64,000 nucleotides of DNA from an uncultured bacterium (GTDB taxonomy: Bacteria > Babelota > Babeliae > Babelales > Babelaceae): positions 1-64,000 of the forward strand of contig CAWGPQ010000011.1 of assembly GCA_963824495.1 (NCBI GenBank), written 5' to 3'. The notes beneath the pieces were generated by a model that was given only the letters and a program-made list of their open reading frames with translations, was not told where the DNA came from and searched no databases. This document shows, in pieces, positions 1-63,514 of this stretch. The position numbers and the translations under genes were made by a program. Within the stretch, counting starts at the first letter, position 1. Each line of letters starts with the position of its first letter.

Positions 1-1510
1 GCCATAAGCCGTGCTCATGGGATGGCTCTGCATAGGTGGCCTTATGGGTGGCTTTATAGGCATACAGTGCAACCATACATGAGCTTACAACAAATAATAC
101 GCTTGTTGCGTGCTTAAAGTGTTTCATAAGCCTGCTATCATGAGGAGCAATAGTAATGCTATAATATATACCCATTAAGAAGAGAAATAAGGCAACTGCC
201 CATAAAAGCTTATACCAGGCAATAATGGCACTGAGATAATAAAAGCACATACCTATGAGCATTAAGCCAAATAGTTTTTTAACTTCTACCATCCAGCTGC
301 CTGCTCGAGGAAGTAAATGTACCGAGTTTGAAAATGTTCCAATAATAAGGAGCGGTAGGCTTGATCCAACACCAAAAGCAAAGAGCAAAAGAAATCCAAG
401 AACTATATTGCCCATGTTTGCAACAATAGTCAAAACCAGTGCAAGACCGGGTGAAAGGCAAGGAGATGCAACGGTACCGCTTACTGCCCCAAAGAGAAAG
501 GCTGAAAGGAAAGGACCCCCGAGGGTCTTAACATGCGAAGTTTGGAGAAGCCGTGGAATATATATCTCATAAAATCCAAACATAGACAGACCCAAATAAG
601 CAAGAAAAGCAACAAGAATAATTACAAAAATAGGGTTGCCAAGGAGCTGCCCAAATTGTGTGCCTCCATAAGAAGCTAAAAGACCCAGAATAGCAAATGT
701 CGTACCAATGCCAAAGGTATACGAAAGAGCAATAAGGATGTTTTTACCAACTGATTGACCAGGAGTTGCTTGTAAAATACCAACAGTTATAGGAATCATC
801 GGGTAAATACAGGGAGTAAAACTCATGAGTAATCCCAGAAGCAGGACAAGGGCAAGGCGTATTGCCAGAGAATCGGTTTTTTCTACCAAAAGCGATAATG
901 AGTATTTCAAATTCTTAAAGAAAGACCCAAATGATGTTAGAAATGTTGAAAATATACTGTTTGCCAGGGGGATTAGTGCTTGAGGTGTTAAAGCTGTTGT
1001 GATGCTTGATTGAGGTAATGATGGAGGTACTATACGAGAGCTTTGAGCAGAGATAACGTTCGTAACCCCTGGCTGTTCCCCTGTACCATCAGGTGACACT
1101 GTTGGTTGGGTAAAAGAAAGTGAGAACGATTTTTCTTGAGGATGCTTTTCATTACTTAAAAGATAGTGCATGAACAATCTCACGTGATCAATGTGAGCGG
1201 CCGGATCACGCGTAACAGTCAGCGTAAATGAAACAGTATCATTATAGCTCAGCTTAGTATCTTTAAAAGCACTGTCATATACGTGTAATGGTGGTTTATT
1301 GCTTTCCCATGGCGAAAGAACAAAAGCTGGATTATCTACGGAAAAGTTCAGTGAATCTTTAAATAATACCTGCTGTGGCTCAAGTGCTATAGTAATGGTA
1401 ACTTTGGAAATATGATCATCGAGCGCTTCAGATACCAGGCAAAAGTTTTCTGCGTAAGCCTGTGTCGCATAGAGCGCAAGACATAGTCCTGCATATACTC
1501 GGTAGTTCAT
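1..1510 (-). CDS. dsbD: Thiol:disulfide interchange protein DsbD (3' end runs off the window)
   Basis: Not in the ORF track. Hand translation from ATG 1510 gives MNYRVYAGLCLALYATQAYA (signal peptide). In frame is LLMSFTPCIYPMIPITVGIL, and ASPCLSPGL follows downstream; these match the two catalytic Cys motifs of the DsbD membrane domain. Confidence 0.88.
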   Translation of the reverse strand, partial: MNYRVYAGLCLALYATQAYAENFCLVSEALDDHISKVTITIALEPQQVLFKDSLNFSVDNPAFVLSPWESNKPPLHVYDSAFKDTKLSYNDTVSFTLTVTRDPAAHIDHVRLFMHYLLSNEKHPQEKSFSLSFTQPTVSPDGTGEQPGVTNVISAQSSRIVPPSLPQSSITTALTPQALIPLANSIFSTFLTSFGSFFKNLKYSLSLLVEKTDSLAIRLALVLLLGLLMSFTPCIYPMIPITVGILQATPGQSVGKNILIALSYTFGIGTTFAILGLLASYGGTQFGQLLGNPIFVIILVAFLAYLGLSMFGFYEIYIPRLLQTSHVKTLGGPFLSAFLFGAVSGTVASPCLSPGLALVLTIVANMGNIVLGFLLLFAFGVGSSLPLLIIGTFSNSVHLLPRAGSWMVEVKKLFGLMLIGMCFYYLSAIIAWYKLLWAVALFLFLMGIYYSITIAPHDSRLMKHFKHATSVLFVVSSCMVALYAYKATHKATYAEPSHEHGLW

Positions 1511-17766: not shown

Positions 17767-17823
17767 AAAATGTTAAGTCATGTATACGTTATTAAAGAAA
17801 ACAAAAGAGAAGAGGGATTCTTT

Positions 17824-18168
17824 ATGAAGCGGCTCAAGAAACTGTTGGCTGCAGGATTTATTCTGGCGTATAGCACAGTTCAGCCTCTACAGGGGGGAAC
17901 CTGCTATTGTGAGGTGCGAGCTTATAAGAAGGATAGTCGTGGATACGTTGAGGTAGGGGCTGCCAACAGTGAAGCAGAGTGTAAGAAAAATTGCATAAAC
18001 TATAGTTATCGTGAACCACGCTATCGTAACCGTGTTAGGTCATATGTCTATTATCAATCCGAAGGGTTGGCACCACGAGCAGGTGATCTCTTTCCACGGA
18101 CAGATGCCGATCGTGCCCTTGAACGATTTCAGGACTATGCAGAAGCACACCCCGAACTAGACCTATGA
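17824..18168 (+). CDS. Small secreted Cys-containing hypothetical protein
   Basis: Likely start MKRLKKLLAAGFILAYS after GAGGG; contains CYC and CKKNC. Confidence 0.7.
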   Translation: MKRLKKLLAAGFILAYSTVQPLQGGTCYCEVRAYKKDSRGYVEVGAANSEAECKKNCINYSYREPRYRNRVRSYVYYQSEGLAPRAGDLFPRTDADRALERFQDYAEAHPELDL

Positions 18169-18277: not shown

Positions 18278-18946
18278 ATGGTAACTTCATCTTGTTCACG
18301 TCCACGTGTTACGCATATGGCAATCGTTATGTTCCTCCAGCTTTTTCCTCTTAGGGCAGAAAAAGATGGTGTAGTATGCCGTCATCGATGTCCACATCTC
18401 ACTACTACGTTGGTCTCATGCTCAAACTGCACAGCACCCTGTCAAGAAGAATGCAAAGTAGCTGAAAATTCTAGTAAATCTATTCCCGATATCAAATTTC
18501 AGGATCTTTTCTTACACATAAAAAATAGTGAAATTCTTAGCAAAGCGCACAAGAGTTATGCTCATCTTGCCAGTGCTACGAAAGAGCACGTTCAGCACAT
18601 TAGAAGTACTCTCAAGCCACTTTTAGAACAACGCTATAGAGGCGTACAAGTATCTGAATTACTTGGTTTAGTTACAGGTGTGGTATTTGGTAGCGCTCTT
18701 CTCTATAGCTATCATGCGCAATTAGAAGCATCTGAAGCTGCACTATCTATATCACAGGGAGATTTTGATAAGTTACCTCGTAATGCCTACAAAGAGCGCA
18801 TATGGCAAGCCATGTCGGAAAATAAAAAGCTAGAGTTCTGGGAAAACTGTGAACAAAGTGGTCAACTATCAAAGCAAGATCAAAATAATAAGCTTTATAT
18901 AGAATTAAAGCAATCACAAAGCGCTAATGGTGATAGACAAAGCTAA
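18278..18946 (+). CDS. Hypothetical protein with Cys-rich N-terminal region and an internal TM segment
   Basis: Signal-like N-terminus, CRHRC...CSNCTAPCQEEC, and one central hydrophobic helix. Confidence 0.65.
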   Translation: MVTSSCSRPRVTHMAIVMFLQLFPLRAEKDGVVCRHRCPHLTTTLVSCSNCTAPCQEECKVAENSSKSIPDIKFQDLFLHIKNSEILSKAHKSYAHLASATKEHVQHIRSTLKPLLEQRYRGVQVSELLGLVTGVVFGSALLYSYHAQLEASEAALSISQGDFDKLPRNAYKERIWQAMSENKKLEFWENCEQSGQLSKQDQNNKLYIELKQSQSANGDRQS

Positions 18947-20772: not shown

Positions 20773-21450
20773 ATGGATGAGTCTTTGAGCCAAAAACGTG
20801 CACGAATACTTAAGGTTTTAGAGCGACTTAAGAAGGTTAAGCGTTACGTACAACAACCTATGATGTCACGTATTATTCATGATTATGGGCGAGATCCATT
20901 TTTAATTCTTATTTCATGCTTATTAAGCTTAAGAGCGCGCGATACCGTAAGCTATGGTGTCAGCAAAAATCTTTTTGCCTATGCTCGAACACCACAAGAG
21001 CTCCTAGCGTTACCACGTCAAAAACTTGAAGAGATTATACACCATGTTGGGTTTCATCGAAAAAAAGCAGAAATACTGCAATCGGTGAGCAAAGAACTTA
21101 TAGAACGATTTAATGGCCATGTGCCCTCAAACGAAGCTGATCTTCTCAGCATTAAGGGTATTGGACCAAAAACGGCAAGCCTCGTGCTTTCTGAGGCATT
21201 TGGTATTCCTGCTATAGCTGTCGATACCCATGTACAGAAACTTGCTCATATATTAGGACTTGTTACCACTGATAATCCTCATCAAACTCAGCGAGAGCTA
21301 GAAAAAATTGTACCCCGTGATCATTGGCAAGAGGTCAATCAGCTTCTTGTTATGTGGGGCCAGAACATATGCATACCTGGCAAATCGGTGAAAGTAGATT
21401 GTGTTACTATTACACAACACCCTTTACTGGGCATTAAAAAAAGCACCTAA
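20773..21450 (+). CDS. nth: Endonuclease III (HhH-GPD glycosylase)
   Basis: PF..LISCLLS, HhH LLSIKGIGPKTA and AVDTHV. Confidence 0.88.
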   Translation: MDESLSQKRARILKVLERLKKVKRYVQQPMMSRIIHDYGRDPFLILISCLLSLRARDTVSYGVSKNLFAYARTPQELLALPRQKLEEIIHHVGFHRKKAEILQSVSKELIERFNGHVPSNEADLLSIKGIGPKTASLVLSEAFGIPAIAVDTHVQKLAHILGLVTTDNPHQTQRELEKIVPRDHWQEVNQLLVMWGQNICIPGKSVKVDCVTITQHPLLGIKKST

Positions 21451-21459
21451 AGCTCCACA

Positions 21460-21488
21460 TTGATTTTTTTCCCTGCAGGTACTATACT
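21460..21488 (+). promoter_or_regulatory. sigma70-type promoter for the small peptide operon
   Basis: TTGATT-N17-TATACT. Confidence 0.6.
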
Positions 21489-21544
21489 CTCTTTTATATC
21501 TTCTTTGCTCGTGTGAGTAATGTATTATTATTATGGGGGTTTTT

Positions 21545-21685
21545 ATGACAATCTATTACAAAAGTTTTCTGGCTCTTGCTCTGAGTATTTTAGCTCTCGG
21601 GGGCTCTTATCCGTATGGGTGTGGTGAGTGTGTGCCTAACTGCAAACCTCCTGCTCCGTGCCAAGAATGTTCGCCAACGTGTTAA
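21545..21685 (+). CDS. 46-aa secreted Cys-rich peptide (6 Cys)
   Basis: Hand translation MTIYYKSFLALALSILALGGSYPYGCGECVPNCKPPAPCQECSPTC; GGGGG SD-like run upstream; the stop overlaps the next ATG (TAATG). Confidence 0.75.
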   Translation: MTIYYKSFLALALSILALGGSYPYGCGECVPNCKPPAPCQECSPTC

Positions 21686-21837
21686 TGAGGGCTATTTTAC
21701 TGCTCATGCTTGTGTGTGGCAGCCCTCGAGCTGACGCTATCGCTTGCTTTAAAGTTGGTGTAGTAAAAGCAGCTAAAAATAATACATGTGTCAGACCACA
21801 CCGTTATCGTGCAGGAGCTCGTGTATGTATAAAATGA
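21685..21837 (+). CDS. 50-aa secreted basic Cys-containing peptide
   Basis: MRAILLLMLVCGSPRADAIACFKVGVVKAAKNNTCVRPHRYRAGARVCIK; coupled at both ends (TAATG, ATGA). Confidence 0.65.
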   Translation: MRAILLLMLVCGSPRADAIACFKVGVVKAAKNNTCVRPHRYRAGARVCIK

Positions 21838-21998
21838 GCTATTATGTGAAAATCGCAGTGTTAGTATTAGGTGGTAATCTTTCACTATATGCTGAATGTG
21901 CTGATGTTTCCTGGAAATATATACCGGGAGGATGTCCACCTACTAAGTCAGGAAGACCGTGTGGCCAGCCTAAGCGTCCTGTTAATCATATAAGATAG
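21834..21998 (+). CDS. 54-aa secreted Cys/Pro-containing peptide
   Basis: MSYYVKIAVLVLGGNLSLYAECADVSWKYIPGGCPPTKSGRPCGQPKRPVNHIR; ATGA overlap with the previous gene. Confidence 0.65.
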   Translation: MSYYVKIAVLVLGGNLSLYAECADVSWKYIPGGCPPTKSGRPCGQPKRPVNHIR

Positions 21999-22046
21999 AA
22001 GAGACACTTTTTCTAAATCGTAAGTGCCTCCTCTAGTATATACTAA

Positions 22047-22862
22047 TTAACGCGCTATTGAGCTTCTGCGAGTTGTTCTGCGTGGCGTTGTTGTTTTACG
22101 TGTTGTGGTTTTGCGTGATGTCACTCTGCGGGTTGGCCTTTCACCACCAAATGGGTGAATGACCGATTCAACCATGTGCCCCAATTTTTCTAGGGCGCTT
22201 TCGGAAGTTCTGCGTCGTGTAACTGTTCGTCCTGTTGCAGCTGTTGTACTACGACGTCGTGGCGTTACTGCCGCTGTTGTACGCGTTCTTCTTCCATCAC
22301 CAGTTATTGTAGCGCGACGAACAGTTGTACGTCGTGGTGTTGCAGTTACACGTGAAGTTGTACGCGTGGTACGTGTTCGAGGTGTTGCTGCAGTAGTACG
22401 GGTGATCGTCTTGCGGGCACGAGTAGTTGTAGCTGCTGGCCTGCCACGAGTACTTGTTGTCTTTCGAGCAGCGGTAGCTGTTCTGCTGATTGCTTTTTTT
22501 GCAGCACCGGCTCGAGTGGTAGTTTTTTTGGTAGCTCTACCGATAGCTCGAGCAGTAGTTTTGCCGGCTGCTGTTGTGCGGGTTCTTCTTCCATCTCCCG
22601 ATACACTGCGTTTGCTTGTGCTTCGGGCTGGTGTTGCTCGTTTTGTTGTGCGTCGTCGTGTGACTGCGGTAGCTGTTGTGCTACGACGTCTACGTGGTGT
22701 CTCTTGTGATGAAGTTGTCGGTTTGTTTTCTTCTAATCCAAGCCCCTGGTTTGTAGATGTTCCTGTTGTCCCTGATTCTGAAGCTGAAAGTGAACTTGGA
22801 TGTTCGTTGTTTGCTGAGCCTCTATAGACATTACCGTTTCTGCTGGCGTTTCCATTTGCCAT
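22047..22862 (-). CDS. Highly basic Arg/Thr-rich low-complexity protein (histone H1/Hc2- or protamine-like)
   Basis: AAGGAG SD before MANGNASRNG (ATG 22862); long tract of TPRR/TTRR/TTAA motifs; GDGRRTRTTAA occurs twice. Confidence 0.8.
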   Translation of the reverse strand: MANGNASRNGNVYRGSANNEHPSSLSASESGTTGTSTNQGLGLEENKPTTSSQETPRRRRSTTATAVTRRRTTKRATPARSTSKRSVSGDGRRTRTTAAGKTTARAIGRATKKTTTRAGAAKKAISRTATAARKTTSTRGRPAATTTRARKTITRTTAATPRTRTTRTTSRVTATPRRTTVRRATITGDGRRTRTTAAVTPRRRSTTAATGRTVTRRRTSESALEKLGHMVESVIHPFGGERPTRRVTSRKTTTRKTTTPRRTTRRSSIAR

Positions 22863-62854: not shown

Positions 62855-63514
62855 ATGATACAAACAAGCAAAATGCTTACGGTAGCATTACTCTGTGGTA
62901 GCTTGGCATGTCCAGCTTTGACCCAAGCGTGTCAGGGTGGGAGCAGGCATCGTGAGCAAGAACGCTCAATAGCATCTGCTTCACATTGTGCTTCAGGTTG
63001 TGGTAAAGCACGACGAAGCAGTACGCCAGAAGCGACCTCCCAAGAGAGTGATCAGGATGAGAAATGTCAAGGGTTTTGGGACAAAGTTAATCCTGTAAAG
63101 TGGTTTGGTTCTGATGAAGAAGAAGGCGCCAGTGAACACCATAAACGATGCAATAAGGCTCGCCGACGCTGCCATCGTGACATGAAACGCTGCCAGGGGA
63201 CTCGTGCTGCCACCCCGACATCAACAAGATACGCAACAAGATCTGGTAAAAAAACTACCGCTGTTGTAGAAAACGTACTTGAAGCTGATGGACAAGGGGA
63301 AGTTGTACAGCCTATCGGCAGTGATCAAGCAGCAAAAATCAGCACCATTATGCAAGCTGCTGAAAAACATACGCAGCTTAAGCAACAAGCACAAGATGCT
63401 GCTGAACCTCAAGAAACTGCTTCAAACACACGTAGCTCCGTACGCCGCTCTACACGCAGCTCTGCCAAAAAAGGCAAAAAAGACTGCCATTGGGAATGTC
63501 GTTGCGTGTGCTAA
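62855..63514 (+). CDS. Secreted Cys/Arg-rich low-complexity protein
   Basis: AAGGA SD, signal peptide, spaced Cys with basic tracts; ends CHWECRCVC. Confidence 0.78.
   Translation: MIQTSKMLTVALLCGSLACPALTQACQGGSRHREQERSIASASHCASGCGKARRSSTPEATSQESDQDEKCQGFWDKVNPVKWFGSDEEEGASEHHKRCNKARRRCHRDMKRCQGTRAATPTSTRYATRSGKKTTAVVENVLEADGQGEVVQPIGSDQAAKISTIMQAAEKHTQLKQQAQDAAEPQETASNTRSSVRRSTRSSAKKGKKDCHWECRCVC

Follow-up and report, generated by a model that had tools for sequence, protein, structure and literature searches.

Three short open reading frames (ORFs) that overlap end to end in a 596-nt gap behind an nth-like glycosylase gene raise the question of whether they are genes at all and, if so, what their products would do for their host. 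The preliminary description of the window (the whole 64,000-nt stretch of DNA that was analysed) had proposed an operon of coupled, secreted, Cys-containing micropeptides that would form a disulfide-linked coat or act as peptide effectors. The host is a member of the Babeliales (Dependentiae), and Dependentiae are obligate intracellular parasites of protists; among relatives from its family and order, proteins carry the label Candidatus Dependentiae or Babeliales. Its genome (1.33 Mb, 96.85% complete; hereafter G000) includes ATP/ADP translocase hits and encodes 96 ankyrin-motif proteins. No other genome of the same genus turned up in our searches, and the nth proteins of relatives are at most ~60% identical to that of this genome.

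The micropeptide genes and their surroundings

The coordinates, lengths and TAATG and ATGA stop-start overlaps of the three ORFs are exactly as initially described (Table 1), and the count of six Cys within 21 residues of ORF1 was confirmed for residues 26-46; the product has a near-neutral net charge (-1) and five Pro. The N-termini, which had been called signal-like, all pass a simple signal-peptide filter, compared to 3.6% of 1491 shadow ORFs. Given cleavage after ADA in ORF2 and after SLYA in ORF3, as predicted by the Ala-X-Ala rule, the odd Cys counts of the mature parts also stand, with three Cys in each (Cys at positions 11, 21, 35 and 48 of the ORF2 precursor and 22, 34 and 43 of the ORF3 precursor). 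The G-run ribosome-binding site favours the 46-aa form of ORF1 over a 50-aa form. For ORF3, an alternative start codon at position 21825 is preceded, 7 nt upstream, by AGGAG at 21813-21817. A 57-aa form of ORF3 and a 56-aa form of ORF2 are present in the public protein collection, both as singletons; neither form of ORF1 is.

Table 1. Features of the cassette locus in the window and of the three micropeptide arrays elsewhere in genome G000
Feature	Position	Strand	Remarks
nth-like HhH-GPD glycosylase gene	20773..21450	+	Pfam HhH-GPD; cassette immediately after
Sigma-70-type promoter TTGATT-N17-TATACT	21460..21488	+	T-rich -35 extension; 85 nt from -35 to ORF1 ATG
G-run ribosome-binding site	21535..21539	+	5 nt before ATG 21545
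ORF1, 46 aa	21545..21685	+	Signal-like helix, YPYG motif, 6 Cys in two CxECxPxC units
ORF2, 50 aa	21685..21837	+	Signal-like N-terminus ending ADA; predicted mature part 32 aa, net charge +8, 3 Cys
ORF3, 54 aa	21834..21998	+	Signal-like N-terminus ending SLYA; W..IPGG and PP motifs; 3 Cys
Hairpin	21994..22034	-	z -4.7 on minus strand, weaker (z -2.0) on plus strand
Histone-like ORF, 271 aa, Arg/Thr/Ala-rich	22047..22862	-	Convergent with cassette; no Pfam hit
Array 1 (L052)	G000:C17:130407-131089		Faces membrane regulator
Array 2 (L118)	G000:C11:127779-128616		Faces membrane regulator
Array 3 (L119)	G000:C12:923-1327		Faces membrane regulator

The arrangement is rare by chance. In 5000 dinucleotide shuffles of the 596-nt gap, three ATG-initiated ORFs (each of 40 aa or more) chained by -1/-4 overlaps arose once, and no shuffle contained even two signal-bearing ORFs chained within 20 nt; among the 217 intergenic gaps of at least 400 nt in the genome, this cassette is the sole three-member chain. 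Its GC content is 44%, compared to 34% and 33% in the flanks. Under a genome-trained model, the per-codon coding scores are 0.113 for ORF2 and 0.143 for ORF3 (gene median, 0.153; intergenic null median, -0.048, with a 90th percentile of 0.120); the ORF1 score (-0.018) is near the null, so that this test does not set ORF1 apart. The two CxECxPxC units of ORF1, a repeat with p=0.003 in residue shuffles, share six, five and two of eight bases at codon positions 1, 2 and 3, respectively, so that most differences fall on third positions. Contigs from two studies, one of which is possibly the source sample, match the cassette without differences, which leaves no variation usable for a selection test. 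As one of these contigs covers both overlaps (21588-21965), the junctions are not assembly frameshifts. A single frameshifted gene was rejected on account of the confirmed junctions and the three separate signals located at the overlaps; an antisense 80-aa ORF (21697-21939) was also rejected, given that the plus frames score best, a result that is partly trivial because the other frames contain stops. A hairpin across the start of ORF3 lacks significance (z -0.6), and single-sequence AlphaFold models are of low confidence (pLDDT 59 and 65, pTM <0.3). Overall, the three ORFs are very probably real genes for exported or membrane-inserted micropeptides. The core of the preliminary description, namely coupled, exported, Cys-bearing micropeptides lacking adjacent processing genes, is thus supported as far as sequence allows.

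Searches for homologues of ORF1 gave no match with a word-based method, three hits among 1.84 billion proteins with full phmmer (all repetitive or unrelated on inspection), a best hit in 40 other genomes of the family at E 0.012 that was spurious on inspection, and hits against the atlas at or below 0.82. Protein searches with ORF2 and ORF3 matched themselves alone, and 250 other genomes of the class yielded only weak, stop-containing hits. None of the three ORFs has a family, structure or atlas match; the cassette was found neither in viral contigs nor in Rfam, with no PDB match below E 0.48, whereas phage DNA gave short chance hits only and the one locus recovered by scanning metagenomes with nth was unrelated. 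Among the nth loci of 29 relatives, the convergent histone-like gene is retained in six; the gaps there measure 4-342 nt and contain no such cassette. Given this absence and the lack of orthologues, the cassette appears to be lineage-specific. The preliminary description had proposed conservation in related genomes as a check; with neither orthologues nor a close relative at hand, this comparison neither confirms nor refutes it.

The hairpin between the convergent genes is likely the terminator of the histone-like gene, possibly shared with the cassette. In relatives, Lys/Ala-rich proteins encoded at the position of the histone-like gene match Pfam HC2 below the cut-off. The window contains other orphan ORFs that combine a signal-like N-terminus with Cys clusters, at 17770-18168 (+), 18278-18946 (+) and 62855-63514 (+); the former two have no Pfam match over the cut-off. 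Genome-wide, a single sigma-70 motif and no RpoN motif were found, and radical SAM proteins, present in all 14 control genomes, were not detected. One contig end (G000:C6:1500-4500) looks GC-rich, unlike the rest of the genome, and is possibly contamination.

The promoter and the regulator-paired peptide arrays

Three further micropeptide arrays in the same genome (Table 1) came to light through weak self-hits of ORF3; their members are exported peptides that carry a common W/F-Q-L/F-P-[SP]-G motif after the signal. The genome contains exactly three copies of a membrane regulator, each encoded head-to-head with one array. This protein of ~900 aa combines a multi-helix membrane domain (five strong helices in a hydropathy scan; no match in Pfam or PDB), a degenerate sigma-54-activator-like module with degenerate Walker motifs and no GAFTGA, and a helix-turn-helix (HTH) domain. 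Its membrane domain was found in 127 of the 201 genomes of the order. At family loci (the best locus from each of the best 29 of 35 matching genomes), an automatic detector identified a head-to-head small signal-bearing ORF in 24 of 29 cases, 20 of which have a ribosome-binding site and Pro-Pro (PP), compared to 39 and, with PP, 5 of 484 control genes; two of these five PP-positive controls are regulators of this genome and one is ORF1 itself. A held-out set of 20 loci from other families, picked from the list of genomes with the regulator domain, gave a small signal-bearing ORF in 17 cases and PP in 16 (controls, 68/485 and 5/485, respectively), with the peptides being mostly 25-43 aa long and consisting of a helix ending in PP. 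Because these genomes are kin and not independent, the counts serve to describe a pattern rather than to test it statistically.

The pairing extends to the neighbourhood of nth. The regulator is present at 17 of the 29 nth loci of relatives, always head-to-head, and 15 of these contain an intervening small signal-bearing ORF, in 13 cases with PP (counted by eye); nth lies directly downstream of the regulator-paired peptide gene. The ancestral order is thus regulator, peptide, nth and histone-like gene. In G000, by contrast, the three regulators lie elsewhere, and the cassette occupies the opposite side of nth. A tandem duplication of the regulator-peptide-nth unit, such as that seen in relative G014, followed by losses, would yield the layout of the cassette locus.

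Several observations concern the arrays and their counterparts in relatives. Five ORFs at array loci have KDEL, KEEL or KDDL at the C-terminus, reminiscent of the ER-retention signals of eukaryotes; a [KHR][DE][DE]L C-terminus is found in 6 of the 1298 proteins of at least 60 aa, two of which are array peptides. The signal of one member of array 2 (C11:127971-128147) is interrupted by an in-frame stop, and the regulator opposite (C11:128713-131486) is split into two ORFs, owing to decay or assembly error. In three relatives, the peptides contain internal repeats or occur as three near-identical tandem copies (L128 in G009, L141 in G024 and L132 in G020). The repeats among regulator-paired peptides include three FPPMG units as well as WPP and FPP, similar to multi-copy pheromone precursors.

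The TTGATT-N17-TATACT promoter of the cassette is present as previously stated, and its strength depends on the matrix used. A generic promoter scan performs at chance (4 sites versus 4.8 expected), whereas a genome-trained matrix places the cassette promoter at the 97.6th percentile of real upstream regions, a score reached by 0 of 200 shuffled regions. With a matrix built from the three array promoters, it is the best non-training site genome-wide (20.7 bits; next site, 20.2). The -35 box is located 85 nt from the ATG in the cassette and 84, 85 and 86 nt in the arrays, a comparable spacing being found in 7% of 58 comparable promoters. When the matrix was built only from 21 peptide promoters of relatives, the array promoters ranked 1, 2 and 33 and that of the cassette ranked 5 among 219 sites. 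The extended -35 box TTGA[AT]NTTT is found in 11 of these 21 promoters, four of the 11 relatives bearing it being of one genus, compared to 8 of 139 promoters of G000; outside the family, it is present at just 2 of 20 loci. A search of the regions upstream of the cassette and the arrays revealed no sigma-54 promoter motif. The cassette promoter is of the array type, by a small margin over strong generic promoters.

The peptides themselves give a mixed signal. Similar to the array genes, the cassette consists of small ORFs with a ribosome-binding site and an N-terminal hydrophobic helix. The two best matches of ORF3 among 526 signal-bearing N-termini are array peptides, five of the eight array peptides are in its top 20, and a pairwise alignment with an array peptide shows 33% identity over 51 aa (E=2e-4). 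All eight array peptides share, downstream of the helix, a hydrophobic-P-x-G motif, a class defined after the sequences had been seen and hence partly post hoc; it is also present in ORF1 and ORF3 and in 11 of 518 other exported proteins. ORF1 (YPYG and a later PP) and ORF3 (IPGG and PP) thus carry both signatures and ORF2 neither, PP being present in 39 of the 518 proteins of the pool. No link of ORF2 to the array family was found, and there is no significant profile homology of the cassette to the arrays: the array HMM gives 3.5, 0.4 and 0.7 bits for the three ORFs (ranks 44, 231 and 194 of 510, respectively), and a pan-family HMM ranks them 421, 215 and 140 of 523, with true array members ranging from 5 to 349. 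Neither nhmmer with the array leaders nor blastn detected the cassette, and, among 518 unrelated exported proteins, 5 equal ORF3 and 16 equal ORF1 in their match to the family. Furthermore, the cassette genes overlap and are Cys-rich, in contrast to the array genes, which are spaced and encode no more than one Cys beyond the helix. No regulator is adjacent to the cassette, its neighbours being nth and the histone-like gene; lacking a head-to-head regulator, the cassette is called here an offshoot of the array family rather than a member. Taken together, the location beside nth, the promoter and its spacing, the ORF3 matches and the motif suggest that the cassette probably derives from, or is co-regulated with, the arrays. 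The more specific proposal, that it represents a displaced, diverged, receptor-less and Cys-bearing fourth copy of the peptide half of the arrays, has about an even chance of being correct.

Cysteine-rich proteins and other readings of the cassette

Small exported Cys-rich proteins form a set across the class (L072-L100; in this genome, G000:C6:77454-77585 and C17:88450-88641), with 49-160 aa and 6-16 Cys and no Pfam or NCBIfam family, and are a candidate OmcA-like envelope system. In relatives, their genes have strong ribosome-binding sites, and G-run sites precede exported Cys-rich genes; some are located directly downstream of a long exported gene or of a 200-aa Cys-rich gene. The genome also encodes DsbD and thioredoxin-fold proteins with signal-like N-termini (window 224-862 (-), G000:C4:15955, C17:105218, C17:97546 and C11:156992), the latter carrying CPHC, CARC, CEAC and CPSC motifs.

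The preliminary description likened the cassette to the disulfide-linked OmcA/OmcB envelope proteins of chlamydial particles. Indeed, iterated profiles that included ORF1 detected proteins of this small, Cys-rich and exported type in 37 of 251 genomes, and G000 encodes large Cys-rich exported proteins as well, for instance, one of 697 aa with 42 Cys. A similar family of Cys-rich exported proteins is described in Babela (PMC4378268), and free Chromulinavorax particles are reported to survive for long and to have a condensed nucleoid and dense material in the periplasm (PMC6561590). These protein classes and particle features make an OmcA-like layer in the phylum plausible. That the three cassette products are themselves cross-linked into such a periplasmic layer of the infectious particle is unlikely in our analysis, despite the histone-like neighbour, the odd Cys counts in ORF2 and ORF3 and the presence of DsbD and several exported thioredoxin-fold proteins, one with CPHC. 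When the profile was rebuilt in a leave-one-out manner from 27 proteins of relatives, without G000, ORF1 reached rank 6 of 6377 with E=0.38, and 42 of 500 shuffles of its mature residues did equally well, so that their order carries no significance; the best member in this genome is instead a 43-aa ORF at G000:C6:77454 (E=0.003, rank 1). There is no match to OmcA (Pfam Chlam_OMP3) and, by inspection, no clear lipobox before the first mature Cys, and no DsbA, DsbB or VKOR exceeds the cut-off in G000. A coat protein would be expected to be conserved, yet ORF1 was not found in 40 other genomes of the family, nor ORF2 and ORF3 in 250 others of the class, and the histone-like gene is convergent and hence not co-transcribed with the cassette. 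The chlamydial comparison therefore survives as a rival reading only, with the small Cys-rich class present in the lineage but matched by ORF1 without significance.

Host-directed or antimicrobial peptides unrelated to the arrays would account for fast turnover and orphan status, and signal-bearing proteins, which make up 44% of the Chromulinavorax proteins, are reported to be enriched in ORFans (PMC6561590). ORF2 is the best candidate, with its short, strongly cationic mature part and Cys near both ends; however, three Cys cannot make a defensin disulfide set, ORF1 is near neutral, the Sec route reaches the periplasm only, and no family, structure or atlas match points to an effector. Such a function is accordingly quite unlikely, and no single peptide has the six-Cys cationic beta-sheet framework of defensins, given that the six Cys and the positive charge reside in different peptides (ORF1, charge -1; ORF2, three Cys). 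Less probable still is a remnant, decaying or neutral, that selection has ceased to maintain, made up of once-functional array copies or of pieces of a single longer gene. Its restriction to a single strain, the lack of orthologues and the near-null coding score of ORF1 would fit such a remnant, as would the decay of genuine arrays (a stop in one signal, one split regulator), but the strong promoter, the ribosome-binding site and all three frames are intact, each of the three signals starts at an overlap, and the ORF1 repeat is conserved at the protein level. Finally, the length of ORF1, its six C-terminal Cys and its CxxCxxxC units are reminiscent of six-cysteine ranthipeptides (SCIFF), which would point to a ranthipeptide or bacteriocin precursor matured in trans. 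This reading is largely refuted and highly improbable: no SCIFF or other precursor family matches the locus, the N-termini are of the Sec type and not the leader type, and both a radical SAM protein and a C39 peptidase exporter are absent from the nearly complete genome, so that a modified-peptide (RiPP) origin fails.

A possible signalling role and comparison with known systems

If the cassette is an offshoot of the arrays, an array-type sigma-70 promoter would drive the three-gene operon, and the stop-start overlaps would couple translation and yield near-equal synthesis of the products. The helices would be inserted by Sec, leaving short Pro/Gly-rich tails facing the periplasm, where, braced or cross-linked by their cysteines, they might serve the three membrane regulators as ligands or modulators acting in trans. 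That the peptides still act on these regulators is possible, though we consider it somewhat less probable than not; the predicted complex of a cognate array peptide with the membrane domain of its own regulator scored 0.02, which counts neither in favour of such an action nor against it. Judging from the minimal helix-PP forms in other families, modulators that stay anchored are no less likely than pheromones.

A broader and rather doubtful proposal is that an order-wide circuit, formed by a Pro-Pro micropeptide and a one-component, ATPase-degenerate membrane regulator ancestrally encoded beside the histone-like gene, times the switch to the condensed infectious particle. In such a circuit, the cassette would supply disulfide-braced, receptor-less ligands, possibly including a covalent ORF2-ORF3 heterodimer, which could tune the three regulators of this genome or jam those of co-infecting relatives and could link the signal to the periplasmic redox state. 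Dependentiae have very few regulators; five are predicted in Babela (PMC4378268), and the report on Chromulinavorax gives no quorum-sensing mechanisms (PMC6561590). The peptide-regulator pairing, present at most of the loci examined, offers a concrete signalling hypothesis for how the life cycle is timed. Peptides of 25-70 aa tend to be missed by gene callers. A search of the literature outside most subscription journals and supplements found no published description of the peptides, the pairing or the small Cys-rich proteins in the phylum; the additional files of the Babela report list expanded families that could bear on novelty (PMC4378268). Known from one strain, the cassette is itself of limited importance, but it would illustrate how the system diversifies, through triplication of receptors, through peptide arrays and through a Cys-bearing set that lacks a receptor.

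Among described systems, one close parallel is the peptide quorum sensing of Gram-positive bacteria (Agr, Com and RRNPP-type), the group in which oligopeptide signals are placed (PMC5007282). Shared features are a short exported precursor encoded beside a dedicated receptor or regulator, a divergent layout, a variable peptide with a short conserved motif and, in one Babeliales relative, repeated units (three FPPMG). By contrast, the Babeliales host has two membranes and no dedicated transporter, the regulator is one polypeptide and neither a histidine kinase nor a cytoplasmic receptor, and the peptides of many relatives are a mere helix ending in PP that may stay in the membrane. MgrB and SafA are small membrane proteins that modulate the sensor PhoQ, with MgrB using cysteines. 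The cassette products resemble them in combining a tiny helix with a short periplasmic tail proposed here to act on a membrane sensor, but the partner regulator is not a kinase and there is no sequence match. Chlamydial OmcA is a conserved lipoprotein, whereas the cassette shows neither homology to it nor a clear lipobox nor conservation and, unlike Chlamydia, which has DsbA/DsbB, G000 yields no hit to these enzymes. The regulators, in turn, match models of the sigma-54-independent TyrR, DhaR and NtrX in their C-terminal third, far below the cut-off, and differ from them in lacking GAFTGA and in having degenerate Walker motifs and a membrane domain without counterparts in Pfam or PDB. Judged by sequence, the cassette falls into no named family and would work in the manner of peptide-receptor signalling or sensor modulators; together with the regulator pairing, it may represent an unrecognised signalling system present through much of the lineage.
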